A stretch of DNA of 53,865 bases from an uncultured Gammaproteobacteria bacterium (lineage in GTDB: Bacteria > Patescibacteriota > Microgenomatia > Daviesbacterales > UBA10151): the NCBI GenBank assembly GCA_964504665.1, contig CAZDEH010000006.1:1-53865 (forward strand). Direction: 5' to 3'. Below, piece after piece: positions 745 to 47,666 of this stretch; the first letter of the stretch is position 1, and each line of letters opens with the position of its first letter. The position numbers and the translations under genes are program-made. The notes under the pieces are model-generated. The model searched no databases and was not told the origin of the DNA. It saw only the letters and a list, made by a program, of their open reading frames with translations.

Positions 745-822
745 TTATAAAAAAAGTAAAAAACCCGTAGACTTTTAAGAGTCGGATGAGTATAATGCCT
801 CTTAAGGTATCTTAAAACACTA

Positions 823-2763
823 ATGCTAGAAACATTTGTCAAACGAGGAGCTCGTTACTTTGTAAATCAATTAGATCGGATATTACCAGCCAGTTACTAT
901 ACTCTTATTGAATTAAAAGAAAGAATAAAACATTTTCAAATAAAAAAAATTGCTATTTTAACAGACGGCAAGACAGATATAAGAATATTACATGAATTAA
1001 AAAACATAGCAATTATTGGAATCTATAGTTTTAATTTAGACATTATTGATACCGTTATTAATGGATTTAGAGTTAACCCGTTGCTGCCTGGTTCTCCGAT
1101 TAAAACAGATGGTTGGTTAGTAAGCTCTCTTAACGAGCTGACCTTGTTTTCTCTTAATCAATATTTGCTTGATAATAAAAAAGAAAACCAAATCGTTCTT
1201 CAGCATGTTAAATACTTAAATGGAACAAAATATTATTCATACGTTGATTTCTTTAATAAAGATCAAAAGACAATTGTCCAAATAAATAATTATCTTAGGC
1301 ATTGCTATGCCATGCCATTTCCTTTAGACCTACGTCTAACTTTTCGGGATTGTCAGGGGACTATTGTAAAAAGTACTCAAATTATTATGCCAGCGGATAC
1401 AATCAGAATAATTTCAAGTGAAGATGTACCAATTAAAGATTTTATAGGCTATATGGAACTGGAATTTGAGATACCTAAAAAAATAACCCCCTTTTTACAT
1501 TATATGGTTGATTATATATCGAGTGATTTTATTAGTAGTAACCATCAATCAGGATTAGGGTTACACCCGGCTTTTGCTTCTTTTACCAGAGGTTATATTC
1601 CAACTGAAGAAGATGATTCTTTGGAAGTTTGCCTTTTTCAGCGCAATTATTCAGAACCAGTACAGATAAAAGCTATTTTGAACTATTTTGAAAATGGTGA
1701 AAAAGTAAGTTCAGAAAAAACTTTAAAACCTCTTAAGAAAAATCAAATGGTCTATCAAGATATTAAACAACTTTTTAATCAAGTTGATTTTACAAAAGTA
1801 TCCTCACCTTATGTTGTAGTTTCTTCTGAGGTGCCTTTACATAGGCCTAACTATTATTATTCCAGGAAAGGTAAAGTCGGATATTATGATACTTCCCATG
1901 CCGGTCCTGATTTAAGTAATTATGTTAAAGATGTTTATGGTGGTATTCCAACAGTTACCAATCGGGAAAAATCAGAATTGCATAAATATCACTGTGTTGA
2001 GACAGATTTAAAGCATTATATACTCCCACCAGAATTTAATATAGAATCTATTATTGCTTTGGGGAATGATACAACATTTAATCTAAAAAACTTTACCCTT
2101 GATTTTTATAATACTGAGGGAAAGTTAATGTATTCTTTTGAAAAAGATTTTGACTATGATAAAGAAAGGTATTTTAATATTAGTAGTTTTCTTCAAGAAA
2201 AGAGGGTAAAGAACTTTGCAGGAACTTGTTCATTTAGACCTCCTAAAAAAAATTCTGATATCCCAATACTTACCAATGGTATAGCTGGGTATAAAAATAA
2301 AAATAATCCATATCTTTCCAGCACTGCAGCTACAGGGTCAGAGCCTTCTAATATCCCATTTTACTTTCGAGGAGGTCCTCCTAATTACATAGGAGGTAAG
2401 TGTGCTGCTGGAGTCATAGATATGTTTGCCAGAGGAATTTCATCTGACATATATGATACTTATTATATAATTTCTTATCTTTGTGCAGATAAAAGTCTAA
2501 AAAAGAAGATTAAATTGGAAATACAAATTATAAATGTAGATGGTGAGAAAAAGAATCTGTATAAAGAAATTTCTGCTCATGGCTCCTTGTTTTTAAAGCT
2601 TTCCGATCTAATAAAAGAGACCAATCATAATTCACCAGGCGGTTATTTCACAGTCTGGTTCTTCTCTGGAGACGCATATCTATATGGGCAGCATATTTTA
2701 TTGCGGAAAAAAGATAATGCTATAGCTCTCGAACACTGCTTCGTAGGAAAGTTTGGATTGTAG
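823..2763 (+). CDS. Uncharacterised 646-aa soluble protein; no family recognised. It has a possible N-terminal Rossmann-like segment followed by repeated beta-rich modules.
   Basis: Long intact ORF with an ATG start and no predicted TM helices. It is co-directional with the next gene and only 28 nt upstream of it. Similar segments recur at roughly aa 170-245 (LRLTFRDCQGTIVKS..GYMELEFEIP..FLHYMVDYISSDFISSNHQSG), roughly aa 430-475 (FTLDFYNTEGKLMYS..) and roughly aa 560-640 (LEIQIINVDGEKKNL..GYFTVWFFSG..YLYGQHILLRKKDNAIALEHCFVG). Confidence 0.5.
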   Translation: MLETFVKRGARYFVNQLDRILPASYYTLIELKERIKHFQIKKIAILTDGKTDIRILHELKNIAIIGIYSFNLDIIDTVINGFRVNPLLPGSPIKTDGWLVSSLNELTLFSLNQYLLDNKKENQIVLQHVKYLNGTKYYSYVDFFNKDQKTIVQINNYLRHCYAMPFPLDLRLTFRDCQGTIVKSTQIIMPADTIRIISSEDVPIKDFIGYMELEFEIPKKITPFLHYMVDYISSDFISSNHQSGLGLHPAFASFTRGYIPTEEDDSLEVCLFQRNYSEPVQIKAILNYFENGEKVSSEKTLKPLKKNQMVYQDIKQLFNQVDFTKVSSPYVVVSSEVPLHRPNYYYSRKGKVGYYDTSHAGPDLSNYVKDVYGGIPTVTNREKSELHKYHCVETDLKHYILPPEFNIESIIALGNDTTFNLKNFTLDFYNTEGKLMYSFEKDFDYDKERYFNISSFLQEKRVKNFAGTCSFRPPKKNSDIPILTNGIAGYKNKNNPYLSSTAATGSEPSNIPFYFRGGPPNYIGGKCAAGVIDMFARGISSDIYDTYYIISYLCADKSLKKKIKLEIQIINVDGEKKNLYKEISAHGSLFLKLSDLIKETNHNSPGGYFTVWFFSGDAYLYGQHILLRKKDNAIALEHCFVGKFGL

Positions 2764-2791: not shown

Positions 2792-3973
2792 ATGATAAAA
2801 AGACATAATTTTAGTAAATTTATAGCTGCTTCTTCCTTTACGACTTCAGATGCGCATAATGAATTTTTTTTAACTATTAACGTTCCTTCTAACACTTCTT
2901 TTACTAAAGCACTAGATAATTTATATAGTAATTATACAAAAGCTTTAAAAAAATTAGAACTGAATGTTACTACACAAGTATTTTGTAGATTTTATTTAAG
3001 CGATATATCTAATCAAAAAAGTTCTTTACTCTCCTCAAAAATATATAAATTTTGTCAAAACGGGGCTTATTCTGTAATCCAGCAATGTCCCTTGGGTGTA
3101 GGTAGTGTTTCATTATTAGCCTATCATATTTCACCAAAGACAAAACGCAAGAGTAAAAAAGTATTGCGGTTTGATGATGAAGAATGGAGAAATGGGGTAA
3201 AAGTAGAAGGAATAAACTACGATATTTTTTGTACTGCTAATTTTTCAGGATTTGGATCCTTAGACTCCTTTGAGCAAACTAATGAGATTTTTGATTCTTA
3301 TAACTCTTTTCTCAACAGTAATGATATGACTTTGATAAAAAATGTTGTTAGAACTTGGCTCTATATTAGGGATATAGATAATCATTATTCTGGAATGGTA
3401 GATAGCAGGAGAGAGTATTTTACAGAGCAAGGATTAACTAAAGAGACCAGATTTATAGCAAGTACAGGGATTGAGGGAAAATCGAAAGAAGTAAATTCAC
3501 TTGTTTCAATGGACGCTTTAGCTTTGACCAGACTAAATCCAAGTCAAATTATTCGGATGGAGGCACTTGAAAATTTAAACCCCACTCATGAATACGGTGT
3601 AACTTTCGAAAGAGGTGCAAGAATTGAGTTTGGTGACCGTTCTCATCTTTTTATTTCCGGAACTGCCAGTATTGATAAACATGGTCAAGTTACAAACACT
3701 AGCGATATTAGAAAACAAGCAAAAAGAGTTTTGGAAAACATTGAAGCTCTTTTAAGACCCCATAAAGCTGGTTTAAAAGATATGGCTTATTTTATAGTTT
3801 ATTTCCGTAATATTACAGAAATAGAAAAAGTGAAAGAAGTTCTTGCCCAAGAAAAACTAAACGATATTCCTACTATTTTCGTTGAAGGTTCTGTGTGTAG
3901 ACCCACTTGGCTTGTAGAAATGGAAGGAATTGGCATAATACCTGAAAATAACTCTTGGCCAAAATTTGCTTAA
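2792..3973 (+). CDS. Chorismatase candidate (FkbO/Hyg5/XanB2 family, YjgF/RidA-like fold)
   Basis: 393 aa, too long for a plain RidA (about 125 aa). The C-terminal half carries chorismatase-like motifs: VVRTWLYIRDID..Y..M...RREYF, HLFISGTASIDKHGQV....DIRKQAKRVLENIEALL and VCRPTWLVEMEGIG. It lies 6 nt upstream of aroA in the same operon as aroC. Confidence 0.62.
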   Translation: MIKRHNFSKFIAASSFTTSDAHNEFFLTINVPSNTSFTKALDNLYSNYTKALKKLELNVTTQVFCRFYLSDISNQKSSLLSSKIYKFCQNGAYSVIQQCPLGVGSVSLLAYHISPKTKRKSKKVLRFDDEEWRNGVKVEGINYDIFCTANFSGFGSLDSFEQTNEIFDSYNSFLNSNDMTLIKNVVRTWLYIRDIDNHYSGMVDSRREYFTEQGLTKETRFIASTGIEGKSKEVNSLVSMDALALTRLNPSQIIRMEALENLNPTHEYGVTFERGARIEFGDRSHLFISGTASIDKHGQVTNTSDIRKQAKRVLENIEALLRPHKAGLKDMAYFIVYFRNITEIEKVKEVLAQEKLNDIPTIFVEGSVCRPTWLVEMEGIGIIPENNSWPKFA

Positions 3974-3979
3974 CAAATA

Positions 3980-5257
3980 ATGAATACGAAAAAGATTAAT
4001 CCTCTTGTTAAGCCTGTTCAAATAACTATTACAATTCCAGGATCGAAGAGCTATTCTAACAGAGCTTTACTAATGGCATCTTTAACCAAAAACCCTGTAA
4101 GAATAAATAACCTATTAGAGTGTGATGATACAAAAGCAATGATTAATTGCTTAAAGACTTTAGAAATAAATATTCAAAAAAAGGGGAATAAAATTAATGT
4201 TTTGGGAAGTATTGATGATGTTGTAGATCAAAAATATAATCTGAACGCAAATCTATCAGGTACAGCTATTCGATTTATTTTAGCTTTATGCTGTGTCATT
4301 CCAGGAATAAAGATATTACAGGGTCAGGAGGGATTAAATAACAGACCAATTGGAGATTTAGTAGATGCTTTATCCCAGCTTGGTGCTAAAATTGAATATT
4401 TAGATAAAGTTGGATTTCCTCCTATAAAAATTACAAGTTCAAAACTTAATCCAAGTAAAGTAAGTATAAAGGGGGGAGTCAGTAGCCAATTTCTCTCAGC
4501 TCTTTTAATGATATTACCTATTATTGGAAATACGACAGTTAATGTGATTGGTGAGCAAGTATCTAAATCTTATATTGATATGACAATTAGTTCTATGGAA
4601 AAATTCGGAGTTAAAATTACCAACAAAAAATATAAAGAATATCAAATGCCTGAAGGTCAGAAGTACAACATAAAAGAATATAGTGTTGAAGGGGACTATT
4701 CGGGAGCAGGGTATTTTGCTGCGATTGCTGTTTTAACTCAATCTAAAATTACACTTAAAAACTTGAACCCACAATCAATTCAAGGGGATAAAGAATTTTT
4801 AGAGTTTTTAAAACAGATGGGTAACAAAATAATTTTTGGGGATAACGAAGTAACTGTTATTGGAAAATGTGTTAAACCTATAAAGATAAATATGAAAAAT
4901 TGTCCTGATCAAGCTCAAACATTAGCAGTACTGGCTGCTTTTGCCAAAGGTATTACCCTTATTAAGGGTGTTAGGTCGTTAAGGGTTAAGGAGACGGAAA
5001 GGGTGAAAGCTCTGGAACAGGAATTAGCTAAAATGGGTATAAAAACTAAATCAAGTGTGGATACCTTAACGATCTATGGAGGAAATCCAAAAGCTGCAAG
5101 AATTGATACTTATGGTGATCATAGAATGGCGATGTCTTTTGCAGTTGCAGGAACAAAATTGAAAGGAATGGAAATTAATAATCCAGAGGTTGTTTCGAAA
5201 ACTTTTCCAGATTTCTGGGAAAAAATAGAACAAATTGGAGTCCAGCTTATAAAATGA
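3980..5257 (+). CDS. aroA: 3-phosphoshikimate 1-carboxyvinyltransferase (EPSP synthase)
   Basis: Motifs IPGSKSYSNRALLMASL, NLSGTAIRF, NNRPIGDLVDALSQLGAKI, SSQFLSALLMILP, CPDQAQTLAVLAAFA, LRVKETERV, GDHRMAMSFAVAG and VSKTFPDFW. Confidence 0.93.
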   Translation: MNTKKINPLVKPVQITITIPGSKSYSNRALLMASLTKNPVRINNLLECDDTKAMINCLKTLEINIQKKGNKINVLGSIDDVVDQKYNLNANLSGTAIRFILALCCVIPGIKILQGQEGLNNRPIGDLVDALSQLGAKIEYLDKVGFPPIKITSSKLNPSKVSIKGGVSSQFLSALLMILPIIGNTTVNVIGEQVSKSYIDMTISSMEKFGVKITNKKYKEYQMPEGQKYNIKEYSVEGDYSGAGYFAAIAVLTQSKITLKNLNPQSIQGDKEFLEFLKQMGNKIIFGDNEVTVIGKCVKPIKINMKNCPDQAQTLAVLAAFAKGITLIKGVRSLRVKETERVKALEQELAKMGIKTKSSVDTLTIYGGNPKAARIDTYGDHRMAMSFAVAGTKLKGMEINNPEVVSKTFPDFWEKIEQIGVQLIK

Positions 5258-6123
5258 TTGATCGAACTCAAGAGCGTACTAAACCAATAATAGTTACCGG
5301 AAGAGAATATGAGACAGTATGGAAGGAGTTATATCTTACTGAAGCGAGTTTTAGAAAAGGAACGAAAGTTCTTTCTATTGGTGAAGGTTTGTCAGATTTT
5401 GCTCACTGTCTTCATCAACGCTTAGGTACTATTGCTACCCCCGTAGACCCTATTTATGCATGTGGTCCACAGTTATTTAATCATGATCCTCGAGTTGTTC
5501 ATGACGTTCTTCGTAGATCTTTAGGTGAACGATATAGTTTTAGTACTCTTGGGCTTAGAGATCCCTCAAGAGTACCACTTCCGGATCCAAGTACAGTTGT
5601 TACTGCAGATGTTTATCATACAAAATTTCCTGATAAATCAGTTGATATGGTGGTTGCTCATCAGCTTGCTGAGTATATTGATATTGATCAAGCTGTGCAA
5701 GAAATGCGAAGAATTGTGCGTCTAGATAATGGAGAAATTCGGTTTGGTGGGGTTCCAGTTTTTTCAATTCCTGAACAAAAAAGACTCCTAAGTTTTATTT
5801 GGAAACGTAACGAAGAAGAAGAGGGAGAACTTGAGCAGGAAGAAGCGCTGGATGGTTTAGAAGTTATGATGGAAAATTTACGGTCTAGATCAGATGCTTC
5901 ACTTTATGTTTTAGCAGATCATAAGCGGAGAGGTGGGGGAGGGTTTTTATTAAGCAGCCTAACTTTGACTCCGCTAATAATAATTAGATTTGATGATAGA
6001 AAACCCCTTATTAATAATCCAGAAGACCCTAGCCAAACTTTATATAAAGTAAACCTGATTCCCAGACAAGACGAAAACACTGAACCCCACTATTATTATG
6101 ATTTAGAGGAAATAGCAGTATGA
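5254..6123 (+). CDS. Hypothetical 289-aa protein with a weak class I SAM-methyltransferase-like layout (degenerate motif I)
   Basis: The ATG overlaps the aroA stop (ATGA at 5254-5257). VLSIGEGLSDF, PVDP and VDMVVAHQLAEYIDIDQAVQEMRRIVRLDNGEIRF resemble Methyltransf_11 motifs I, post-I and II/III. The C-terminal part has an acidic run (NEEEEGELEQEEALDG) and RRGGGGF. The gene is visibly more G+C-rich and less K/N/I-rich than its neighbours. Confidence 0.4.
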   Translation: MIDRTQERTKPIIVTGREYETVWKELYLTEASFRKGTKVLSIGEGLSDFAHCLHQRLGTIATPVDPIYACGPQLFNHDPRVVHDVLRRSLGERYSFSTLGLRDPSRVPLPDPSTVVTADVYHTKFPDKSVDMVVAHQLAEYIDIDQAVQEMRRIVRLDNGEIRFGGVPVFSIPEQKRLLSFIWKRNEEEEGELEQEEALDGLEVMMENLRSRSDASLYVLADHKRRGGGGFLLSSLTLTPLIIIRFDDRKPLINNPEDPSQTLYKVNLIPRQDENTEPHYYYDLEEIAV

Positions 6124-6172
6124 AAGAAAAAAATTGTTAGTTTCATAAAAATTAGAAGAATATTTTTCAAAT

Positions 6173-7258
6173 ATGGCGGGTAATTCTTTTGGACAACTAT
6201 TTAGAATAACTACTTTTGGAGAATCTCATGGAGGAGCAGTAGGAGTGGTTATTGATGGTTGTCCTCCAGGACTTAAGATTGATGAAAAATATATTCAAAA
6301 AGAACTAGATCGCAGACGTCCAGGGCAAAGCAAAATTACTACTTCTCGAAACGAAGAAGATAAAATAACTATCTATTCTGGAGTGTTTGAAGGTAAGACT
6401 ACTGGAACACCAATATTATTATTAGCTTCTAATAAGAACGCCAAACCAGAAGATTATCTTCATCTAAAAGACGTTTATCGACCTTCACATGCAGACTATA
6501 CATATGATATGAAATATGGCTTTAGAGACTTTCAGGGAGGTGGTAGATCATCTGCTCGGGAAACACTGGCTAGGGTAGCAGCTGGTGCTATTTCTAAAAA
6601 ATATCTAAGCGAGAAACTAAAAATAGAAATCTTAAGTTGGGTAGAACAAGTAGGTGAAATTAAAGCAAGTGTTAATATGGATAAAGTTTCTATCCAAGAC
6701 GTAGAATCAAATATAGTTAGATGCCCGGATCAAAAAGCTGCTGGTAAGATGATAGATTTAATAGATTTTATCAAGCAAGAAGGAGATTCTATTGGAGGCA
6801 TAATTAAAGGTGTAATTAGAGGTGTACCGTCCGGATTAGGTGAACCTGTTTTTGATAAACTACATGCTGACTTGGGGAAAGCGATGCTCTCAATTAATGC
6901 AGCCAAAGGTTTTGAGATAGGCTTGGGTTTTGCCAGCGTGGGTATGAAAGGAAGTGAACATAATGATATTTTTTATACTGATAATAAAAAAAGAATCCGT
7001 ATAAAAACAAACAATGCAGGTGGAGTTTTAGGAGGAATTTCAACCGGTGAAACAATTTATTTCAGAGTAGTTTTTAAACCTGTTGCTACTATCAATCAAA
7101 TGCAAGTAACACTTAATAAACAAAAAAAAGAGGTTATTTTACAAGCTAAAGGAAGACATGATCCTTGCGTTTTGGCTAGAGCCGTACCTATCATTGATGC
7201 AATGGCTTCTTTGGTTGTAATGGATCATTATTTGAGACATAAGGCTCAAAATTTATAA
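6173..7258 (+). CDS. aroC: Chorismate synthase
   Basis: N-terminus [34 protein letters not shown], plus [39 protein letters not shown] and KGRHDPCV. Confidence 0.95.
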
Positions 7259-7310: not shown

Positions 7311-8276
7311 ATGTTTAACTTAAGAAAACCTAAAAAAGGACTTAGTGTTGTAATTAATACTAAAAATGAGGAACTTCATATCGAGGAATGCTTAAATTCT
7401 GTTAAGAATTGGGCAGATGAAATAGTTATTGTTGATATGTGTAGTACTGATAAAACAACAATAGTAGCTAAAGCTTTTGGGGCCAAAATTTATTCAGTAA
7501 AAGATCTTGGATGGGTTGAACCAGTAAGAAACTGGTCTTTTAATAAAGCAAACTATGAATGGGTATTTAGTTTAGATGCTGATGAAAGAGTTCCTAAAAC
7601 ACTCCAAAACAAAATTGATGAAATTATTAAAGCTGATAACTGGGATGTTGTAAAAATACCTTGGAAGAATATTTTTTTCAATAAATGGATTCAACATGCT
7701 CTTTGGTGGCCAGATCACCATCCCAGGTTATTTAGAAAAGGTTATGTTAAATTAGAAAAAAGAATTCATCCTGAAGCAACCTGTAAAGGTAGGGTTTTAG
7801 AACTAGAAGCTAAAGAAAAATGGGCAGTAGTTCATTATAATGCTGAAAATATAAATGTATGGATGGAAAAAATAGATTTATATACCTCCCGTGAGAATTT
7901 TTATGATAAACAAAATAATATAACACCTCAACACATATTTCAGCGTTTTGACAGTGAGCTTGTAAGTAGATATTTTAATTCAAAAGGCTATTTAGATGGG
8001 GTTCATGGCTATGTATTAAGTAAGTTTATGGAATTTTATAGGTTTTTAGAATTTGCCAAATATTGGGAAAGAAAAGGGTACCCTGAATTATTTGGAAAAA
8101 ATAAACTAAAAAATGTTTATCAACGGCGATATAGCAGTTTGATCGAAACTCGTGTATTACAGGAGGAGCTGGAGGATTTAAGAGTAAACTTAGCTATTAT
8201 CACATCTTCTAAAATTTATAAAATATGGCAATATTATACTGGTTTAAAAAAAAGATTATTGAATATGTTTAATTAA
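7311..8276 (+). CDS. Family 2 glycosyltransferase (GT-A fold)
   Basis: LSVVINTKNEELHIEECLNSV..IVIVDMCSTDKTT...FSLDADERV, which is the typical GT2 nucleotide-sugar binding region and DxD motif. Confidence 0.8.
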   Translation: MFNLRKPKKGLSVVINTKNEELHIEECLNSVKNWADEIVIVDMCSTDKTTIVAKAFGAKIYSVKDLGWVEPVRNWSFNKANYEWVFSLDADERVPKTLQNKIDEIIKADNWDVVKIPWKNIFFNKWIQHALWWPDHHPRLFRKGYVKLEKRIHPEATCKGRVLELEAKEKWAVVHYNAENINVWMEKIDLYTSRENFYDKQNNITPQHIFQRFDSELVSRYFNSKGYLDGVHGYVLSKFMEFYRFLEFAKYWERKGYPELFGKNKLKNVYQRRYSSLIETRVLQEELEDLRVNLAIITSSKIYKIWQYYTGLKKRLLNMFN

Positions 8277-8281: not shown

Positions 8282-8821
8282 TCAGTCTTCAACACAAATA
8301 GTCTTTGGCTGCCCAATATAACCCCTTAAGACCACCATATTCATAAAATCATTATGATAAGATTTAGGTTTAAAACCATTAAAATCTTTGTTATTCCAAA
8401 CAGATCGATGTGCTTCAGTTGAGTGACCTCTCCAAGAATATTGAATGCATTGTGTGGGATAAACAACTATAATATATTTAGTTCTATAAATTAAATAATT
8501 AATAAGATTAATACCATCAGATTTATTAAGATGTTCAAGGCAATCACCTATAATTGCTAGTTCAGTTTGAAAATCAGGGTTGTGGTCTATAAAATGTTCG
8601 ATATACTCATGATAGACCTTCGAATAAAGGTCCTTTAATTTAAATTCTTTGATATATGATTTATCAGCCTCGATACCAATAATATTAGCATTAGGGTAAA
8701 TACTTCTGATAATTTTCCCATATTTACCTGCTCCTGATCCTATATCAAGATAATTTGCAAAACTATGTAGCTTAATAAATTTTTCAACAGCTTTATCAAA
8801 CCTGGAATCCGAATAAGGCAT
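8282..8821 (-). CDS. Small class I SAM-dependent methyltransferase
   Basis: 179 aa. Motif I is YLDIGSGAGKYGKII, followed by IIGIEAD and IIGDCLEHL. Confidence 0.7.
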   Translation of the reverse strand: MPYSDSRFDKAVEKFIKLHSFANYLDIGSGAGKYGKIIRSIYPNANIIGIEADKSYIKEFKLKDLYSKVYHEYIEHFIDHNPDFQTELAIIGDCLEHLNKSDGINLINYLIYRTKYIIVVYPTQCIQYSWRGHSTEAHRSVWNNKDFNGFKPKSYHNDFMNMVVLRGYIGQPKTICVED

Positions 8822-8825
8822 TTTT

Positions 8826-10235
8826 CTAATTAGACCAAATTATATGTTTAATAACAAGCATTCGCCTTAACTGACTCTTTAAACTCCATACTTTATGCAA
8901 TATTCTAAAAATTATAGTATCTTTTAGTTGAAAATTGTAAAAATCTTTTAAAAGTAACATTCTTTTTAACGGATCAGTATCAATACCTCCGCGGTAAATA
9001 TAGTAAGGTTGTTTTCCTAGCCAGAATTTGTCACTGATTAATTTGGCTATCTTTGCCTTTTGGAAAAGTGTGGTCCCAGGAAAAATCCATATTTCCCCGA
9101 TAGTGCCAATTTCATCTGCTTTAATTCGCTTAATTAACTTACTGGTTAATAATCTGTCTCTTTGACTTTCCCCGGGTAAACCAAACATTATTAAGGCACA
9201 TACTTGAATTCCTACTTTTTTAGTAAACCTGACTGCATTTAATATTTCTAGTAAATTAGTTTTTTTGTTAATACTTAAAAGCATTTTGGGAGAACCTGAT
9301 TCAATCCCGAATGACAGTTTATAAAAACCTACTTTCCTCATTAATCTCAACATCTCTTCATCAACAAAATCCACTCTGGTTGTGCCATGAATAACAACCT
9401 TTATGTTTCTCTTTAGGATCTCCCTGCAAAAATTTAAGACTTCTTTTCTGCTTCCTGTTAATGTATCATCCTGAAACACAAAATGCTTTACATGATACTT
9501 TTTAACTAACATCCCCATTTCGTTAGCGACATTTTTTCCACTGCGGAATCTATATCCTCTCCAAATTTTCCAGGTAGAGCAGAAGGTACAAGCTCCCATA
9601 CAACCTCTGGAAAATATAATTGGGACACGAACCTCTTTTTCCAGGTTAATGCCATCAACAACACCTTGTCCCCAAGGAGAATAGGCTAAAGGGTTGATCA
9701 TGTCCCAGGCCGGAAAAGGAATTTTATCTAAGTTTTTTATTAATGGTCGATCTACATTATTAATAATTTGATTTTTACTATTCCTCCAGACTATACCTTT
9801 AATCTTTTCTAATTTTTTCCCTAATACTAAATCACAAAGAGTTACCTCTCCTTCTCCTTTCACGATATAATCTATTACTGGATAATTCTCCATCATTTGA
9901 TTCCACATTAAGGTTGGATGGATACCACCGAGTACGATATTACAATGGGGGTTTAATTTTTTAGCCACCTTTGCTATTTTTATGGCCTGAAGTCTGCTTG
10001 GGGTTAAAACAGAAATACCTATTAGATCAGGTTTTATTTTTTTTAACTTATCAACCAAGCTTCTTTCTCCTTCAATAGCTCCGTCAATTACCTCCACTTT
10101 TACTCCTGGAGCATATTTCTTAAGATAAGAAGAGAGATAAAGAATACCTAGTGGGCTGGGTCGATAACCTGACTGTTCTACTCCGGGTAAGTTAATTAGA
10201 AGAACTTTATCAAACTTAGATTGAATATTTTTCAT
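8826..10235 (-). CDS. B12-binding (class B) radical SAM enzyme
   Basis: The N-terminal cobalamin-binding-type domain reads KVLLINLPG..PLGILYLSSYLKK..DLIGISVLTPS..IVLGGIHPT. It is followed by the CxxxCxxC cluster motif in FSRGCMGACTFCS. Confidence 0.85.
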   Translation of the reverse strand: MKNIQSKFDKVLLINLPGVEQSGYRPSPLGILYLSSYLKKYAPGVKVEVIDGAIEGERSLVDKLKKIKPDLIGISVLTPSRLQAIKIAKVAKKLNPHCNIVLGGIHPTLMWNQMMENYPVIDYIVKGEGEVTLCDLVLGKKLEKIKGIVWRNSKNQIINNVDRPLIKNLDKIPFPAWDMINPLAYSPWGQGVVDGINLEKEVRVPIIFSRGCMGACTFCSTWKIWRGYRFRSGKNVANEMGMLVKKYHVKHFVFQDDTLTGSRKEVLNFCREILKRNIKVVIHGTTRVDFVDEEMLRLMRKVGFYKLSFGIESGSPKMLLSINKKTNLLEILNAVRFTKKVGIQVCALIMFGLPGESQRDRLLTSKLIKRIKADEIGTIGEIWIFPGTTLFQKAKIAKLISDKFWLGKQPYYIYRGGIDTDPLKRMLLLKDFYNFQLKDTIIFRILHKVWSLKSQLRRMLVIKHIIWSN

Positions 10236-10274
10236 ATGTTTTGAATTATATCAAAGGAATTAAAAAAAATACTA

Positions 10275-11060
10275 TCAGTTAAACGGGTTAAATCTTTTAG
10301 TTGAAGATTGGCTTTGAGTATCTTTACTCGATAATATTTTATGGTAACTGTCAAAAACTAAATGTGGTTTATTGTCTATAACAATCTCTCCTTTATTAAG
10401 CAAGATAGCCCTATCACAGAATCCTTTGACTGCATCTTCGTTATGACTTACAAAAATAATTGTTTTATCTTTGGTTTTTTTTACCTCTTGTAAATAGTCC
10501 AGACATTTTTTTTGAAATGCAACATCTCCCACCGATAAAACTTCGTCTATTAATAGGATAGAAGCATAAGTATGGATAGCAACAGAAAAACCAAGTCGCA
10601 TATACATCCCCGAAGAATACCTTTTAACAGGAACATGAATAAATTCTCCTAGTTCGCTAAATTTGATGATATCTTCAACCTGAGACAATATTTCTTTTTT
10701 GTGCATACCCAAGATAGCTCCGTTAAGAAAGATATTTTCGTAGCCGGAAAGCTCAGAATGAAAACCTGCTCCAAGTTCTATGAGTGGTGCAACTTTCCCC
10801 AAAACCTGTACCTTACCGGTAGTTGGGTAAGTTACACCTGCAATAAGTTTCAAGACAGTAGATTTGCCAGCACCATTTTTGCCAGCAATTCCTACAGTTT
10901 CTCCTTTATGAATTTCAAAAGAAATATTAGAGAGGACAGTCAATTTTTTTGCCCACTCTTTACCGCTAATAATACTGGGGATTAACTCTTTAAAAGTTTT
11001 ATCATCTTGAAGATAGAACTTTTTTGTTACATTTTTAAATGAGATCGCTAAATTATCCAT
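10275..11060 (-). CDS. wzt: Polysaccharide/teichoic-acid-type ABC exporter, ATP-binding subunit (Wzt/TagH-like)
   Basis: Walker A GIAGKNGAGKST, signature-like YSSGMYMRLGFS and Walker B ILLIDEVLSVGD. The track ORF starts at a TTG (11078). An ATG at 11060 (MDNLAISF..) lies 1 nt after the wzm stop and is the more likely start. Confidence 0.9.
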   Translation of the reverse strand: MDNLAISFKNVTKKFYLQDDKTFKELIPSIISGKEWAKKLTVLSNISFEIHKGETVGIAGKNGAGKSTVLKLIAGVTYPTTGKVQVLGKVAPLIELGAGFHSELSGYENIFLNGAILGMHKKEILSQVEDIIKFSELGEFIHVPVKRYSSGMYMRLGFSVAIHTYASILLIDEVLSVGDVAFQKKCLDYLQEVKKTKDKTIIFVSHNEDAVKGFCDRAILLNKGEIVIDNKPHLVFDSYHKILSSKDTQSQSSTKRFNPFN

Positions 11061-11061
11061 G

Positions 11062-11844
11062 TTAAACAATATCTGCAAAAACTTTCTCGCTTCTTTTAAA
11101 AACCCAAAAACTAAACATAAAAATTGTAATTGAAATTATTGCCGATAGAAGTATATTTCCTTTATCAAATTCCAGACCAAAAAGAGCCGAACGATATCCT
11201 TCTATAATTCCTACCATGGGGTTTAATTTATATAGCCCGACATATTGATTAGGAACAAGAGATAGTGGATACACAATGGGGGTTAAATACATCCACAGCA
11301 TCAGTAATAAGTTAACAAGATACTGGATATCTCTGTAAAAAAGATTGGCAGTGGATACCAGTAAGGATAATCCTGCCATTAGTATAATTTGTATAAGGAA
11401 CAGAGGTACGATGAACAGCAAGGACAGTTGTAATTCCATCTGGTTAAAAAACATAAAGATTAGTAACAAAACTGAAGCAAAAAATAAATCTATAGCTTTA
11501 GAAACTATTATAGAATATGGTAAGGTTTCTCGGGGAAAATTTACTTTTTTGATAAGATTTGAATTATCTATAAGGGATAGAGCTGCCGATCCGATCGAAG
11601 TTTGGAAGTATATCCATGGTAAAAGGCCAGCAAAAAGAAAAACAGGATAAGGGATATTATTTAGTGGGAAACGGAATATTATTGAGAATACAAAAGAATA
11701 TACCAAAAGCTGCACAAGAGGATTTAGTATTACCCAAAAATATCCTATGATTGATTGTTTATATCTTCCTTTAATTTCTCGGAGAGTTAACTGATAGAGA
11801 AGGTATTTATAATGCAGAAATGGTTTTATAAATTGATAAAACAT
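11062..11844 (-). CDS. wzm: ABC-2 type polysaccharide exporter permease (Wzm/TagG-like)
   Basis: 260 aa with about 6 TM helices. The N-terminus LTLREIKGRYKQSIIGYFWVILNPL is typical of ABC-2 permeases. It lies directly upstream of the ATPase gene. Confidence 0.85.
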   Translation of the reverse strand: MFYQFIKPFLHYKYLLYQLTLREIKGRYKQSIIGYFWVILNPLVQLLVYSFVFSIIFRFPLNNIPYPVFLFAGLLPWIYFQTSIGSAALSLIDNSNLIKKVNFPRETLPYSIIVSKAIDLFFASVLLLIFMFFNQMELQLSLLFIVPLFLIQIILMAGLSLLVSTANLFYRDIQYLVNLLLMLWMYLTPIVYPLSLVPNQYVGLYKLNPMVGIIEGYRSALFGLEFDKGNILLSAIISITIFMFSFWVFKRSEKVFADIV

Positions 11845-11874
11845 TAGTTAAACCAGTATATCAAATTGGCAGAA

Positions 11875-12945
11875 CTAGTGCATAAGAAAGATTCTTATTC
11901 TTTTAAAAGCGAAAAAGAAGCTTTGTTTTATCAATGTGATTCTAGCCGGATTATTAACCATGCTTATTAATTTTAAATAGTGATAAAGTAGTTTTAGAAA
12001 ATCATATTTTGTATAAACGCCAACGAATAATTCTGCTCTTTTCTCTCTCAAATCTTCCTGTTTTTGAAAATATACTATTCTTTTTTTATCAAGTAATGAT
12101 TTTTTATTTGGTTTAGCGATAAAATATGAGAACATTTGTGGAACCTTTTTTAAGTCAGTATACTTTTTATCGGCGGCTAGGACCTCGTTCATGTATTTAT
12201 CTAAAATGTTGTGACGTAACTTATTTAATTTTGGATTATGAGTCAAAATCATATAAGCAATGCCACCACCGGTATCATGACGTTCAATAATGTCGAAATA
12301 TCGGGATAAAGATTCAAAAATAAGTTCAGAATGGATTGCTTCTGTTGGATCATGATGCAGCATTGTTGCTAGGTGTGGGTAATCAAGATGATCTTTTCTT
12401 ATATTAGTTGGTAAAGAGTTGTTAATTTGATGGATGTAGAACCATTGCCTTAAAGGATATTGATTACGGTGAGGACCAATATAGTCAAAGTTGACAAAAA
12501 TTCCACCTTCCTTGAGAGTTTTTGCTAAAACACAACTAAGTCGGTTAATATATTGAACATGATGTAATGCAGCAACATTAACAATTAGATCAAACTGATT
12601 TTCTTTAAAAACAACTTTGTTAACATCGGCTTTTAAATACTTGATTTGTCTATTTTTTCTTCCCTCCTCAGCTCCTTTTAAAAGCTCTTCTGAATAATCA
12701 AACGCAGTCGCTTTTAAAACAATTTTTCTGTCTATAAATTCTCTTTCAACCCATCCGTTTCCGCAATTAAGGAAAAGTCCGTTTTTAAGCGGTTTTTTTG
12801 CAAAACGTTCTTTAAAATCATCCATCCAATATTTGTTCTTATCTCCAGTGAAGTTTTGCGACATATATTCAAGTACTTTTGGAAAATCATTCCAATACTT
12901 TCCACTGTAATAAATCTTGCTATTTTTATTTACAACTGTACTCAT
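11875..12945 (-). CDS. Class I SAM-dependent methyltransferase with a C-terminal extension
   Basis: LFLNCGNGWVEREF (motif I-like), ATAFDYSEELL and FDLIVNVAALHHVQYINRLSCVLAKTLKEGGIFV. Its start overlaps the stop of the upstream gene by 4 nt. Confidence 0.7.
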   Translation of the reverse strand: MSTVVNKNSKIYYSGKYWNDFPKVLEYMSQNFTGDKNKYWMDDFKERFAKKPLKNGLFLNCGNGWVEREFIDRKIVLKATAFDYSEELLKGAEEGRKNRQIKYLKADVNKVVFKENQFDLIVNVAALHHVQYINRLSCVLAKTLKEGGIFVNFDYIGPHRNQYPLRQWFYIHQINNSLPTNIRKDHLDYPHLATMLHHDPTEAIHSELIFESLSRYFDIIERHDTGGGIAYMILTHNPKLNKLRHNILDKYMNEVLAADKKYTDLKKVPQMFSYFIAKPNKKSLLDKKRIVYFQKQEDLREKRAELFVGVYTKYDFLKLLYHYLKLISMVNNPARITLIKQSFFFAFKRIRIFLMH

Positions 12946-15065
12946 AATTTTTTAATGTTCTTAATTTGATTAAAACAAGCAAAGAGTTTTATTCCAAAAT
13001 AAATTGCCATAAATACATTGATTAAAAATAAAATAAGAAAAAACTCTTTTGGTACATCCCAATAATACAGAAACTTAATCCACCATAAATCAGGAGTTCT
13101 CTCAAATATTTGGGTATGAATCATCCATGATTGCCAGGGGTTATTTAATACTCCTCCATAGTTTTGATATTTAGATTGATTCATAGCAGGACCAAGATCT
13201 GAGATATAAGGAAAATCTAAGCTTTCCAGATTTGTTGGTTTTCCGTTGATATAAAGCCCCAACAGTGCAATTAATTGTTTATGTGCTTTGACAATACTCT
13301 GATCCTCGAAATTGGTATCGATTAAAAGTTGATTATCTTTTTCTTTAAGTAGGAAGTTTGGAATGAGGATGTCTATATCGGATCTTTTTCCTAATACCAG
13401 TGAGGCAAATTCACTATTGACTCTTTTTTGGTTTATAAAAATATTTATTTTTGCAGAAGAAGTTGATTCTGCAAGAGGATGGTTTATTAAAGTTAAGGAG
13501 ATTTTTTTAATTGGATCTTTTAAATTATTATCAAAAGAAATGTAGCCCTGATTGTCGATCGCACGCCATCTTTCTCCTCCAACACTGAAAGGAAAATCTA
13601 TGCCGTCGTAAAATCTAACATTATATGAACCATGTTCTAAAGTCTGAGGAAACGATCTAGTTAAATTTTTTAATTGTCTAGTAAAAGGAAATATCGGAGA
13701 AAGTTGGGGGATAATATTCATATAATCAAAAGAGGTGTAATGGTATCCTGAAATTACAACATCAGTCTGTAAATTATGAAGTTTTGTTTGATATGGTATG
13801 GTAATTCCTAAAATTTCCACAAACAAGCCCGCTGCTAAAAGTGGAGCAACCACAAAAATCTTTGCTTTGTTACCAAGTTGCTTATAAACATGGCCTACTA
13901 TTAACATTCCGAAAGGAATAAGCGGTAGTAAATATCTTGGTCCCCAGCTAAGTTCTCCATGCCAATAGCTAATAAGTTTATTATAGCCATTTTCAAACTG
14001 GAGTTGTTTAGCGTATAAAAGAATATAACTAAAACAAAGTATTAAGAATATTATTAGTTCAGGTCTGATTATTTTTTTAATTTTATACCAAAAAATTAAT
14101 ATGAGAAGTAATATTGGAGAATAAAGGAAAATACTTCTTCCCGGGCTTAATAATTGTTCGTATATTCCTTCAAATACTAACGGAATTTGTGATGGTGTAG
14201 CTACATACTGTGCATAATTTACAAAGTAAGTAGGGTTAGCATAACCTATTCCTGAAACAGCTCTCAGATTTTCAAACCAAAAATAAACAAGAAAAAAAGG
14301 AAGTAGTGTAATTAGAGCAATTAAACAATCTCTTAGAATTAATTTACCACAACGCATATTTAGTAAAGGTTTTGTTAAGAGAAGATAGTAGACAATAAGG
14401 GGGATTACTGATAATAGAAATGTTTGATTATAAAGAGTAGAAACTATTCCGAAAGCTATAACTGAAAATATTAAAAAAATCTTCTTTTTCTTTTCTGTGT
14501 ATTTTTTTAATAAATAAAAAGAAAGAAACAAAAAAGAAGTAAATATCATATGGGCATAAATATGTTTAGATAAGGCAAATAAGTTTGTGGTAAATATTGA
14601 AACAAAACTTAAAAAGATAGCCTGTTTGATAGATAATTGAATTTTGAGAAAATAAAGAAAAAGAATTACTCCCAATAAAGCTGTGTATACAATATTTGTA
14701 AAACTAGCAGCAAATAAAATAAACCAATCCGATTCTAAGGGGAAATGAACTGGAGGGGTAATATGATAAATTTTATAAACAATATCTGCTAAAAAAACTG
14801 CTGGGAGCATAGCTAGTGAATATCCCAAACCAGTTCCGCTATACGGCTTACCATTTTTACCAATTTGTGTATTAAAATGAATGTTTTTGCCAACCCAAAC
14901 GCCGCCGGTAAACTCATAAGGCGGACCGGTTGGTTCATGTTGATAATAAATATTTCTGGCAACAGCTAAATATTGGAAGCCATCTTGAGAATCAATAACT
15001 CCTGAAACAAATAAGGAACTAAAGAAAATAAGAAAGAAAAAATAGCAGATGATTAGCTTGTGCAT
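12942..15065 (-). CDS. Polytopic membrane protein, GT-C-fold glycosyltransferase candidate (ArnT/PMT-like) with a large C-terminal extracytoplasmic domain
   Basis: 707 aa with more than 10 TM helices. An acidic first-loop motif follows TM1 (VIDSQDGFQYLAVARNIYY). A soluble domain of about 250 aa precedes a final TM helix. Confidence 0.6.
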   Translation of the reverse strand: MHKLIICYFFFLIFFSSLFVSGVIDSQDGFQYLAVARNIYYQHEPTGPPYEFTGGVWVGKNIHFNTQIGKNGKPYSGTGLGYSLAMLPAVFLADIVYKIYHITPPVHFPLESDWFILFAASFTNIVYTALLGVILFLYFLKIQLSIKQAIFLSFVSIFTTNLFALSKHIYAHMIFTSFLFLSFYLLKKYTEKKKKIFLIFSVIAFGIVSTLYNQTFLLSVIPLIVYYLLLTKPLLNMRCGKLILRDCLIALITLLPFFLVYFWFENLRAVSGIGYANPTYFVNYAQYVATPSQIPLVFEGIYEQLLSPGRSIFLYSPILLLILIFWYKIKKIIRPELIIFLILCFSYILLYAKQLQFENGYNKLISYWHGELSWGPRYLLPLIPFGMLIVGHVYKQLGNKAKIFVVAPLLAAGLFVEILGITIPYQTKLHNLQTDVVISGYHYTSFDYMNIIPQLSPIFPFTRQLKNLTRSFPQTLEHGSYNVRFYDGIDFPFSVGGERWRAIDNQGYISFDNNLKDPIKKISLTLINHPLAESTSSAKINIFINQKRVNSEFASLVLGKRSDIDILIPNFLLKEKDNQLLIDTNFEDQSIVKAHKQLIALLGLYINGKPTNLESLDFPYISDLGPAMNQSKYQNYGGVLNNPWQSWMIHTQIFERTPDLWWIKFLYYWDVPKEFFLILFLINVFMAIYFGIKLFACFNQIKNIKKL

Positions 15066-15134
15066 GCGTATTACATTCTAACATGATTTACTTAAGATAT
15101 AGTAGAATACAGAAATAATAATTGATTTAAGAAT

Positions 15135-16871
15135 ATGATTAGTTTTTTCAAAAACCATTCTTTTAATATACTTTCCTTTATTTTTTTCCTATCCTTAAAT
15201 GCTTTTATATATCGGTCTTTAATATTAAATTTATCGACTAACCTTCTTGATTGGAATGACTACCCTCTCTTTGTCTGGATTATGCAACATAATATTGATA
15301 ATTTTCAGCAATTAGCATTCCAAAATTTTTTTAACACAAACATATTTTATCCATTTCAGGGCAATCTTTTATTTTCAGATTTATTTCTGCCAACAAGCGT
15401 AGTAGGATATTTAGTACAAATTTTTGTTAAAAGCCCCGTTGCTATATTTAATACAGTATTTTTTCTGGTATTGGCAATTAACCCAATAGCTTGTTTTTTC
15501 TTCTGGAAAAATTTCTTTTCTTCTAAGTGGACAGTATTTTTTGCGACATTAACCACTGCTTTTTCACCTTTTGTAGTTTTAAATTCCTATCATTTTCAAA
15601 TGCTTAATATTTGGTCGTTATTTTTTTGTCTTGGATTTTTACTAAGGAAGGAACTATCTTTCAGAAGTGCAATATTCGGGGGTGTATTTTTGGCAATACA
15701 ATTTTTGTCGGGTATTTATTATGCAATTTTTGCATTATTTATTATTACCGTTTGGTATGTAATAAAAAGCTGCGAGATAAAAAAATCCAAAATAAAATTA
15801 CTCAATTTGTTGCGAAGGCTTTTTGTATTCACGCTTACTTTTTTAATTCTAGCAGGATTTTTTATCATTAAATATTTACAGGTTAAAAATGCCTATAATA
15901 TTACCCGTGATTATTGGGAATATGTAATTTATGCTTCTCATCCCACGGATTATATTTTTTCCCAATTTCAAAGTTTACTTGCAGAAACCGGTTTTTGGAA
16001 AAGGTGGAATAGTTTTAGCAATCATGGATCATCTGCAAGCTTTCCTGGTTTTGTCTTGCTGATTTTTAGTTTGATAGGTATCTTTAACTATCAGGTAGTT
16101 AACAAAATAAAGAGTATTTCTTTAAAGCTAACAAATATATCTATATTTTTTCTAATTCTTCTAATATGTGGATTTGTTTTCTCTTTAGGTCCTCGTTTAA
16201 GCGTAAACGGCGTTTATCTCGCAATTCCCTTACCATATTCAATTGTTTTAAAACTGGCTCCACCGCTATTTGAACCAATAAGGGCGGATTCCCGCTGGGC
16301 TTTTCTTGTTTTTTTTAGTTTAACTTATTTTTCATGTATTGGAATTCAAAAAATTGCAAAGTCGATAAAAAAGGAAATAATTGTAGTGCTGGCTCTATCT
16401 TTATTTTATATGATTGAAATAATTCCTATAAGTAGGAATACAGAGTCAAAGCAATTTTATAATCCTGTTTATGACACGCTTCAAAATCAATGTTCTGCAA
16501 GTAAGCAAGTAGTGTTAGAATATCCATTAACTCAAGATAAGAAAGATGCGGATATTGTTACTAACTTATCGTATAAGACTCAGATGCTATTGGCGAGTCT
16601 TACACATAAATGTAATATTGTAAATGGTTATAGTGGATATACTCCGAAGGATTACGAAAGTTACGAAACTGAGCTGTATACTATTGTTCCTGTTGGGGGC
16701 AAGGATAGGTTTTACCAGCTTTTAAAAGAAAGAAATGTTAATCTCTTTAAGTTAAATAAAAAAGAAATTTATTCAAATAAGGCGGAATCAATAGAGGAGT
16801 GGCTTCAAGATAGCAAAAGGTATGTTATATTAATCGAAAATGAGACTTATGTAATTGCAAAGCTCTTATGA
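15135..16871 (+). CDS. Polytopic membrane protein, GT-C-like glycosyltransferase candidate
   Basis: 578 aa with many TM helices. The first loop after TM1 reads STNLLDWNDYPLFVW. A C-terminal soluble domain is present. Confidence 0.5.
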   Translation: MISFFKNHSFNILSFIFFLSLNAFIYRSLILNLSTNLLDWNDYPLFVWIMQHNIDNFQQLAFQNFFNTNIFYPFQGNLLFSDLFLPTSVVGYLVQIFVKSPVAIFNTVFFLVLAINPIACFFFWKNFFSSKWTVFFATLTTAFSPFVVLNSYHFQMLNIWSLFFCLGFLLRKELSFRSAIFGGVFLAIQFLSGIYYAIFALFIITVWYVIKSCEIKKSKIKLLNLLRRLFVFTLTFLILAGFFIIKYLQVKNAYNITRDYWEYVIYASHPTDYIFSQFQSLLAETGFWKRWNSFSNHGSSASFPGFVLLIFSLIGIFNYQVVNKIKSISLKLTNISIFFLILLICGFVFSLGPRLSVNGVYLAIPLPYSIVLKLAPPLFEPIRADSRWAFLVFFSLTYFSCIGIQKIAKSIKKEIIVVLALSLFYMIEIIPISRNTESKQFYNPVYDTLQNQCSASKQVVLEYPLTQDKKDADIVTNLSYKTQMLLASLTHKCNIVNGYSGYTPKDYESYETELYTIVPVGGKDRFYQLLKERNVNLFKLNKKEIYSNKAESIEEWLQDSKRYVILIENETYVIAKLL

Positions 16872-23692: not shown

Positions 23693-23695
23693 ATA

Positions 23696-39926: not shown

Positions 39927-39959
39927 ATTGATATTTTATCATTTTGGTACAATAAAGGA

Positions 39960-41045: not shown

Positions 41046-41047
41046 AT

Positions 41048-41728: not shown

Positions 41729-41746
41729 AAAGCAACAAAGACGACC

Positions 41747-43651: not shown

Positions 43652-43672
43652 AACTTATTGTATAATGCCCTC

Positions 43673-45707: not shown

Positions 45708-45909
45708 ATCTAGCGGGATGTTTATAGTTACAGACGGAGAAACCTTTCAATCAGGATCTACAAGTTTAATAGAAGCATTAAGAATGTTTCAAGATGCTTT
45801 AAATAATATCCAACAACAGTTTAGATTGGAAGCTTATAAAGAGGTTAAATTAACACAACCTCCTGTCAGAATAGTTGGTACTAGAAAGGATTTGGTAAGA
45901 ATTGTTTAA
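45679..45909 (+). CDS. Small hypothetical protein (76 aa, or about 63 aa from the internal ATG)
   Basis: The ORF bridges the glyQS end (29-nt overlap) and the next gene's TTG start (8-nt overlap). No family is recognised. Its coding status is uncertain. Confidence 0.35.
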   Translation: MERKVRFRCESSGMFIVTDGETFQSGSTSLIEALRMFQDALNNIQQQFRLEAYKEVKLTQPPVRIVGTRKDLVRIV

Positions 45910-46738: not shown

Positions 46739-46779
46739 TTGAGTTTTCACAGACAATTAATTTTTCCGTGAAAAGGGTA

Positions 46780-46833: not shown

Positions 46834-46853
46834 TTCTGCCCAGAAAGACCAGT

Positions 46854-47663: not shown

Positions 47664-47666
47664 CTT

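Follow-up and report, generated by a model that had tools for sequence, protein, structure and literature searches.

The stretch of DNA examined here (the window) is a whole contig, CAZDEH010000006.1, of 53.9 kb with a GC content of about 32%, from an uncultured bacterium of the Patescibacteriota. Near its start, four co-directional genes encoding a 393-amino-acid (aa) protein, AroA, a 289-aa open reading frame (ORF), and AroC follow a gene for a 646-aa protein and stand at the head of a glycan locus. The 393-aa protein, whose relatives carry no database name other than "Rid family hydrolase" or "enamine deaminase RidA," is predicted to have the fold and catalytic residues of chorismatases. 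We put at roughly 0.55 the probability that the following reading is correct as a whole: AroA and AroC provide a private supply of chorismate, the 393-aa protein cleaves it, and the 646-aa protein couples the product to a surface sugar.

Gene layout at the head of the glycan locus

An initial annotation of this DNA described the four genes at 2792-7258 as separated by 6 nucleotides (nt), -4 nt, and 49 nt, and the ORF listing confirmed these gaps. The motifs that it had picked out in the 393-aa translation (RTWLYIRDID, FISGTASIDKHGQV, and CRPTWLVEMEG) are present, and the neighbors are as it claimed, with a DegT aminotransferase and the 646-aa ORF upstream and a GT2 gene downstream. The adjoining glycan island is also real, as it contains GT2, GT4, Wzy_C, PMT_2, ABC-2, and Bac_transf genes; methyltransferases and a B12-dependent radical S-adenosylmethionine (SAM) enzyme are encoded there as well. 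The DegT frame is open from base 1 and retains the FYPTK lysine motif. The 646-aa gene is preceded by a 78-nt gap that holds a promoter-like site (Table 1). The proposal that the genes form one operon is consistent with their tight spacing, but it gained nothing from scans for promoters and terminators, in which site counts in the region of the unit were not above those in shuffled sequence; the evidence for a single operon is therefore the spacing. No tRNA or Rfam features were found in the window.

Both aro genes are orthodox and score above the NCBI equivalog cut-offs, confirming their earlier identification. AroA reached 423 bits on TIGR01356 (cut-off 287) over residues 16-420, and AroC reached 473 bits on TIGR00033 (cut-off 212). 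AroA contains the stretches PGSKSxSNR, RVKETER, and DHRMAM, which we take to be the typical substrate-binding motifs of 5-enolpyruvylshikimate-3-phosphate (EPSP) synthases, and lacks a shikimate kinase domain. Our family screen, which took in ORFs of at least 120 aa, detected no other shikimate or aromatic amino-acid gene in the window. Thus, the observation that only the last two shikimate steps are present, with no aromatic branch gene, holds within these 53.9 kb.

The 289-aa ORF had been called unrecognised. It still has no clear identity, but a weak class-I methyltransferase match amends that description: Methyltransf_11 scored 30.7 bits (cut-off 21.2) over residues 113-156 only. UbiE-type NCBIfam matches were far below cut-off, and a putative SAM motif I (VLSIGEGLS) is degenerate. 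The GC content at third codon positions (0.20) resembles that of its neighbors. The ORF was found in the window only and is absent from two syntenic contigs, L084 and L085. Comparison with the 356-aa methyltransferase of the same locus revealed no relationship.

Table 1. Features in the first 13 kb of the window
Feature	Position	Strand	Basis
DegT/DnrJ/EryC1-family sugar aminotransferase, 3′ part, truncated by contig end	1..744	+	PF01041, E 4e-29
Promoter-like site (TAGACT, 17 nt, TATAAT)	768..796	+	Consensus match only
646-aa protein, conserved partner of the chorismatase-like gene	823..2763	+	No Pfam, NCBIfam, or PDB sequence match
393-aa protein with predicted chorismatase fold	2792..3973	+	PF01042 in C-terminal domain; model compared with Hyg5/FkbO
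aroA, EPSP synthase, 425 aa	3980..5257	+	TIGR01356
289-aa ORF, weakly class-I methyltransferase-like	5254..6123	+	Methyltransf_11, weak
aroC, chorismate synthase, 361 aa	6173..7258	+	TIGR00033
GT2 glycosyltransferase, directly 3′ of aroC	7311..8276	+	PF00535; 65%-identical gene in the same position in L084
Convergent block: 179-aa methyltransferase-like protein, B12-binding radical SAM, ABC-2 exporter pair, 356-aa methyltransferase	8282..12945	-	Syntenic in L084

Fold and active site of the 393-aa protein

We modeled the 393-aa protein with AlphaFold2 using 26 homologs (predicted local distance difference test score [pLDDT] 88, predicted template-modeling score [pTM] 0.91). When the model was compared to the PDB using Foldseek, the only full-length matches were to the chorismatases Hyg5 (5AG3, 5A3K) and FkbO (4BPS). 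The matches to 5AG3 and 4BPS had E values of ~1e-17 over 353-397 aligned columns, with template-modeling (TM) scores of 0.61/0.71. RidA structures aligned to one lobe of the model, covering ~130 residues or one third. By sequence, the protein was about equally near to single-domain RidA and to Hyg5, in the C-terminal lobe only. In the model, the single chain folds into three YjgF-like lobes as a pseudo-trimer. The possibility that the protein is a duplicated RidA without chorismatase residues was ruled out, as all full-length structure matches are chorismatases.

In Hyg5, Glu-334 is the essential acid that protonates the enolpyruvyl methylene, and type II chorismatases (CH-II) carry a signature of Gly, Gly, and Cys, which are G164, G231, and C318 in Nat-hyg5 and G173, G240, and C327 in Hyg5 (PMC7170507). 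Using HMMER alignments, we mapped the residues of the 393-aa protein onto Hyg5. The catalytic Glu corresponds to E376, and the CH-II signature is present as G226, G290, and C369. R187, W189, and D194 correspond to R128, W130, and D135 of Hyg5, and R370, adjacent to the signature Cys, corresponds to R328. The mapped positions do not vary across 105 of 105 relatives, which are 37-83% identical and derive from every genomic context, and neither do several arginines; the invariant arginines are R66, R187, R206, R274, R283, and R370. The two proteins also have four motif blocks in common: R-x-W...D, A-x-TGI, SGTAS, and VCR...VE-x-EG. Thus, the chorismatase-like fold and residues proposed at the outset are borne out by the full-length structure match, the catalytic Glu, and the Gly/Gly/Cys signature.

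The family is large. We found 4,237 matches at 90% clustering and 567 clusters at 50% identity (E ≤1e-30), and relatives are present in at least 595 GTDB species genomes. The family is spread over many mostly uncultured phyla.

Genes that accompany the family

To the window we compared 83 other loci that contain relatives of the 393-aa gene, collected from GTDB plus two look-ups and searched using tblastn with a 10-kb reach. None of the 83, including two Parcubacteria/Paceibacterota loci, contained aroA or aroC, and both genes were also absent from 27 further loci that we obtained from a metagenome scan with an alignment of the 646-aa protein. These results rule out aroA and aroC as general partners of the family. 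The two genes lie beside the chorismatase-like gene in 3 of ~115 loci, namely the window, L084, and L085. The L084 and L085 chorismatase-like proteins are 83% and 67% identical, respectively, to that of the window, and the order 646-aa gene, chorismatase-like gene, aroA, aroC recurs in both, although the surrounding genes differ. In L084, the order is FdtA, DegT, 646-aa gene, 393-aa gene, a gene for an IS1595-type Zn-ribbon protein, a 195-aa ORF, aroA, aroC, and GT2, followed by the same convergent block as in the window (75-81% identity). In L085, a methyltransferase gene precedes the 646-aa and 393-aa genes, a 154-aa ORF, aroA, and aroC, after which the neighbors are different. Since the order is kept in both contigs despite divergence to 67% identity and an insertion sequence (IS)-like insertion, the linkage survives divergence and rearrangement. 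The proposed survey of related genomes therefore found that the cassette recurs, but not that it is general.

Several features of these contigs were noted in passing. The IS1595-type gene (L084:10977-11627, minus strand) splits the chorismatase-like gene from aroA and aroC, with the cassette otherwise intact. The ORFs between the chorismatase-like gene and aroA (L084:11752-12339, 195 aa; L085:4415-4879, 154 aa), which are absent from the window, share a cysteine motif (ERCGLCC...C...C) and a sub-threshold match to a CxxCxxCC domain. They were considered as shikimate kinases, which they are not. Neither the window nor L084 has a gene for an N-acetyltransferase in the interval from DegT to the 646-aa gene.

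A more frequent companion is the 646-aa protein. In 11 of the 83 loci, the gene for a homolog of it directly precedes that for the 393-aa homolog. The 646-aa family comprises 55 clusters, all annotated as "hypothetical," that share contigs with 393-aa homologs, and in nearly all 646-aa loci with enough flanking sequence a 393-aa relative is adjacent or within ~5 kb. In an AlphaFold2 model of the protein (pLDDT 91), the N-terminal domain is small and alpha/beta, and the large body that follows it is all-beta. Foldseek detected no structural match, returning generic immunoglobulin/macroglobulin beta-sandwich arrays with a best TM score of 0.13. Searches of Pfam and NCBIfam also found no match (a permissive Pfam scan yielded only PNGaseA, at 15 bits), and a profile search of PDB sequences returned none. 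A PglD/NeuD-like nucleotide-sugar domain at the N terminus was considered and is unsupported (hhalign probability 0.1). We conclude that the core of the system is the 646-aa/393-aa pair and that aroA and aroC are a lineage-specific supply module. The four-gene unit as first described thus recurs in part, but aroA and aroC are rare additions to it and the 289-aa ORF is specific to the window.

We carried out a census of neighbors in 32 loci carrying both the 646-aa and the 393-aa genes. The most frequent neighbor was a CTP_transf_3 cytidylyltransferase (22 of 32), which typically lies downstream at a median distance of 33 nt from the pair. NeuB and a weakly GT-B-like 393-aa protein were each found in 14 loci, an unnamed 496-aa protein in 12, an ABC-2 exporter in 11, DegT in 10, B12-radical SAM in 8, the 3-deoxy-D-manno-octulosonate (Kdo) transferase WaaA in 7, a HAD phosphatase in 6, and aroA plus aroC in 3 (the window, L084, and L085). 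NCBIfam places the cytidylyltransferases as PseF-like or, in a deltaproteobacterial group, as true KdsB. The pair loci that were analyzed in detail contain pseudaminic-, legionaminic-, or Kdo8N-like gene sets. In two deltaproteobacterial metagenome-assembled genomes (L104:9905-16453 and L028:9977-16798), the chorismatase-like gene is followed by kdsB, waaA, and a 385-aa gene of no assigned family. This block is convergent with genes for a sensor kinase, a sigma-54 response regulator, and a 670-aa partner homolog, and here the pair sits among core lipopolysaccharide Kdo genes, not in an O-antigen-type locus. The nonulosonic-acid and Kdo clusters around the pair in these other genomes point to the likely acceptor.

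The strong association with genes for cytidine monophosphate (CMP)-ulosonic acids could also mean that a ulosonic-acid derivative is the true substrate. In this main rival explanation, which we regard as unlikely, the pair acts not on chorismate but on a (non)ulosonic-acid intermediate, such as the alpha-carboxy enol ether of a 2,3-dehydro-ulosonic acid or another 2-oxo-acid enol or enamine derived from phosphoenolpyruvate (PEP). The chorismatase fold would provide the same protonate-and-hydrate chemistry, and the adjacency of aroA and aroC would be unrelated or serve another purpose. The frequencies of PseF/KdsB-type cytidylyltransferases, NeuB, and WaaA beside the pair argue for this explanation, as do the deltaproteobacterial gene order and the absence of aroA and aroC from every ulosonic-type locus. 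However, aroA and aroC occur in precisely the three loci that have no cytidylyltransferase or NeuB within reach. Moreover, neither the 646-aa partner nor ulosonic-acid genes accompany the family in ~70 of the 83 loci, although its active site is the same there, and the neighborhood of ubiquinone genes described below has no ulosonic-acid link. Finally, Kdo is not expected in bacteria of the candidate phyla radiation (CPR) or in Nanoarchaeota, both of which carry the family.

Another possibility, which we consider improbable, is that aroA and aroC do ordinary housekeeping work for aromatic amino acids or folate, lie beside the glycan locus by chance, and are independent of the 646-aa/393-aa pair. 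Consistent with this, the genes are orthodox and near to housekeeping CPR copies (72-74% identity for AroC), the linkage occurs in only three related contigs, and reduced CPR genomes often have scrambled gene order. The nearest AroC relatives, at 70-84% identity, are CPR proteins, and those at 70-74% come from Daviesbacteria, Levybacteria, Paceibacterota, and Patescibacteria. In three such contigs (L117, L118, and L119), aroC is part of a complete shikimate block with all seven steps, including genes for 3-deoxy-D-arabino-heptulosonate-7-phosphate (DAHP) synthase, dehydroquinate synthase, AroA, shikimate dehydrogenase, dehydroquinase, and AroC. The block continues with chorismate mutase and prephenate dehydrogenase/dehydratase and, in one case, trpE/G/D. 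As these superclusters contain Phe/Tyr and Trp branch genes, some Patescibacteria retain full aromatic amino-acid synthesis. The window AroA is 56-59% identical to the supercluster proteins and 75% identical to AroA of L085; in two of the three comparator contigs, AroA is fused to shikimate kinase. Fusions of this kind, 600-613 aa in length, occur at L118:5725-7527, L119:4780-6621, and L120:7146-8987.

Because related CPR contigs contain complete superclusters, a two-gene excerpt is unusual, and the context in the window is not that of an ordinary aro operon. The window aroA/aroC pair is thus a fragment of the CPR pathway that has been put next to the chorismatase-like gene. The tight spacing, in which aroA starts 6 nt after the 393-aa gene and is followed by a 4-nt overlap, is not what a chance juxtaposition predicts, and neither is a linkage that outlasts divergence, an IS-like insertion, and changed flanks. 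Related genomes keep all seven shikimate genes together with those for Phe, Tyr, and Trp, whereas here only the two chorismate-forming steps are kept, beside the sole neighbor whose fold uses chorismate.

That the 393-aa protein is instead a Rid-family imine or enamine deaminase clearing reactive intermediates of a neighboring pyridoxal phosphate-dependent DegT enzyme is very improbable: the public labels, the match of the C-terminal lobe to PF01042 and single-domain RidA structures, and the DegT genes in 10 of 32 pair loci are outweighed by a score of 42 bits on the RidA profile TIGR00004 (cut-off 106), by a single three-lobed chain in place of a ~125-aa homotrimer subunit with full-length structure matches to chorismatases only, by the presence in the window DegT of the catalytic lysine expected of a normal aminotransferase, and by the lack of a DegT neighbor for most family members.

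A proposed route from chorismate to a surface glycan

In the reading that we favor, the 646-aa gene, the 393-aa gene, aroA, the 289-aa ORF, aroC, and probably the GT2 gene would form one co-directional unit heading the glycan locus. AroA and AroC, as CPR-lineage copies detached from the full shikimate supercluster, would convert shikimate-3-phosphate and PEP to chorismate, a reaction that is established for these families. The 393-aa protein would then cleave chorismate, with E376 protonating the enolpyruvyl methylene, to give pyruvate and a hydroxybenzoate; 3-hydroxybenzoate (3-HBA) is the predicted product, with 4-hydroxybenzoate (4-HBA) or dihydroxycyclohexadiene carboxylate as alternatives. 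The 646-aa partner may take the product and couple it to an activated sugar, which here would be an amino sugar made by the upstream FdtA/DegT-type genes and in most other genomes a CMP-activated nonulosonic acid or Kdo. The outcome would be an aromatic substituent or aglycone on the surface glycan. The convergent block downstream belongs to the same glycan locus. Recruitment of aroA and aroC could reflect a reduced genome that cannot otherwise rely on a chorismate pool.

The choice of chorismate as the substrate draws on the fold and catalytic residues, on the ubiquinone neighborhood, and on the restriction of an accompanying aroA and aroC to reduced CPR genomes. An active site that is identical across contexts sharing no pathway also argues that one common central metabolite is the substrate. 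Several independent contextual lines thus converge on an unannotated enzyme family and a novel-fold partner. With the fold taken from the model, chorismate cleavage by the 393-aa protein is well supported by context, which further hints at surface sugars bearing an aromatic acid derived from chorismate; the type of product and the attachment to glycan are what we infer.

The ubiquinone neighborhood was encountered in proteobacteria. The genes ubiT, ubiU, and ubiV encode O2-independent ubiquinone hydroxylation, and ubiquinone synthesis requires a chorismate-derived ring. In Acidiphilium iwatense KCTC 23505 (NZ_JAKGBZ010000025, L082:7374-12861), a 39%-identical homolog lies directly after ubiT (SCP2), ubiU, and ubiV (U32) and precedes pdxS and pdxT. 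In three more proteobacterial loci (L055, L058, and L069), ubiTUV are within 10 kb of the homolog. The genes in between belong to no ubi families in L058 and L069, and a direct ubiTUV link was found only in L082. Many alphaproteobacteria, including Hyphomicrobium denitrificans, lack both UbiC and XanB2, and the source of their ring precursor is unidentified (PMC12423496, PMC5714133). The family could supply hydroxybenzoate for ubiquinone in such bacteria, and the ubiTUV neighborhood provides a testable candidate for the ring-precursor enzyme.

A number of observations weigh against the favored reading. On the curated chorismatase profile TIGR04444, the 393-aa protein scored 50.5 bits (cut-off 325), and on PF21168 it scored 17 bits (cut-off 27). 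The suggested check by profile hidden Markov models and structure prediction was therefore positive for structure but negative for the curated FkbO/Hyg5 cut-offs. Since it falls below both, we file it as a separate family with, according to the model, a chorismatase fold, and not as a curated FkbO/Hyg5 member. Hyg5 and FkbO are no more than 16-18% identical to the 393-aa protein, and the CH-II signature, which predicts a 3-HBA product, is a weak predictor from sequence at ~17% identity; a role in ubiquinone synthesis would favor 4-HBA over 3-HBA. The link to chorismate rests on three contigs and the ubiTUV neighborhood, with aroA and aroC missing from all other loci surveyed and the ulosonic-acid association as noted above. 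The cassette encodes neither shikimate kinase nor any earlier step, and shikimate-3-phosphate would have to come from elsewhere. Ligase, acyltransferase, and glycosyltransferase features were not recognizable in the 646-aa protein in our Foldseek, PDB profile, and Pfam searches. For every family member, chorismate cleavage is a prediction.

Of known systems, the Hyg5-type CH-II chorismatase, a 3-HBA synthase, is the closest; the related types are FkbO (CH-I), XanB2 (CH-III), and CH-IV. Hyg5 has the same single-chain, three-lobed YjgF-like fold as our model and shares with it the motif blocks, catalytic Glu, and Gly/Gly/Cys signature. In natural-product clusters with a chorismatase, the gene lies beside those that consume its product, as would be the case here. 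Unlike Hyg5 and FkbO, the 393-aa protein is ~50 residues longer, and its family neighbors glycan, ulosonic-acid, ubiTUV, or aroA/aroC genes instead of those for polyketide synthases and nonribosomal peptide synthetases.

The initial annotation had known of no described link between chorismatases and polysaccharide loci. In the literature searched, we found no report of a chorismatase-type gene in a polysaccharide or nonulosonic-acid locus, of the 646-aa partner, of a connection between chorismate and nonulosonic acids, or of a hydroxybenzoyl substituent on pseudaminic or legionaminic acid, Kdo, or O-antigen. However, hydroxybenzoate in glycoside-bearing molecules has a precedent, as 3-HBA is a late donor group in brasilicardin (PMC7170507). 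Brasilicardin is an actinomycete secondary metabolite, in contrast to the cell-surface glycan locus proposed here, and its pathway has neither dedicated aroA and aroC genes nor a relative of the 646-aa protein. Its 3-HBA group, which a chorismatase makes and which is added late, sits on the sugar part of the molecule, an arrangement that would parallel the one we propose. The p-hydroxybenzoic acid derivatives (p-HBAD) and phenolic glycolipids of mycobacteria are built on 4-HBA, such that hydroxybenzoate is the aglycone of methylated surface glycoconjugates. The mycobacterial chorismate pyruvate-lyase gene, Rv2949c, lies amid glycosyltransferase and methyltransferase genes; it encodes a UbiC-type lyase of another fold than chorismatase, yields 4-HBA, and has no ulosonic-acid connection. 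Biosynthetic gene clusters are also known to include paralogs of primary-metabolism genes, for example shikimate genes, as a precursor supply. These paralogs are usually early, flux-controlling steps such as DAHP synthase, whereas the window holds only the last two shikimate steps, in a type of genome that may not have the others.

If the 393-aa protein is a chorismatase, several hundred clusters now labeled "Rid family hydrolase" would gain a function, and chorismatases would extend from the secondary metabolism of actinomycetes and Xanthomonas to surface-glycan loci of largely uncultured phyla. The modification would be a new kind of glycan decoration, with the 646-aa partner, which has no fold match, as a candidate for new coupling chemistry. 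Retention of the last two shikimate steps alone in a reduced genome would illustrate how minimal cells may prune a pathway for a single envelope modification. A wider form of the proposal is that an unrecognized chorismatase subfamily and a novel-fold 646-aa partner decorate nonulosonic-acid, Kdo, or amino sugars of surface glycans in many phyla with an aromatic group derived from chorismate, that reduced CPR genomes add a private aroA/aroC, and that the same subfamily may be the missing supplier of hydroxybenzoate for ubiquinone in alphaproteobacteria without UbiC and XanB2. We advance this combination tentatively, as it is doubtful that every part of it will hold.

Other members of the family are found in different surroundings. 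In ~20 proteobacterial loci among L055-L083 (e.g., L060:245-2780), the homolog is followed by a conserved pair of genes, of ~229 and ~226 aa, that resemble prolyl 4-hydroxylase (P4H)-type 2-oxoglutarate-Fe(II) oxygenases. In Fibrobacterota and Chitinispirillaceae (L030 and L037-L052), homologs lie near a 914-aa protein whose middle domain is hydrazine-synthase-alpha, near a beta-propeller/MauG-like protein, and near genes for cytochrome c maturation of the ResB/CcsA type, a context that is unrelated to glycans or quinones.

Elsewhere in the window, divergent ORFs of 707 aa (minus strand) and 578 aa (plus strand) at 12942-16871 have no family match; they are syntenic in L084 and L085 at 63-75% identity, beside the chorismate cassette. 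Four consecutive plus-strand ORFs at 20635-26545 (539, 482, 471, and 477 aa), of which the first three lack a Pfam match and the fourth matches PMT_2, have a lower GC content (~0.28) and a strongly negative AT skew (~-0.15), and may encode polytopic membrane glycosyltransferases or polymerases. The glycan island is followed at 39015-53482 by a dcw-type (division and cell wall) cluster containing mraW (opposite strand), a DUF4012 protein, recO, a class II tRNA synthetase, mraZ, a penicillin-binding protein, and mraY, together with two Mur ligases that match only the middle and C-terminal domains and a short 195-aa FAD_binding_4 (MurB-like) ORF.

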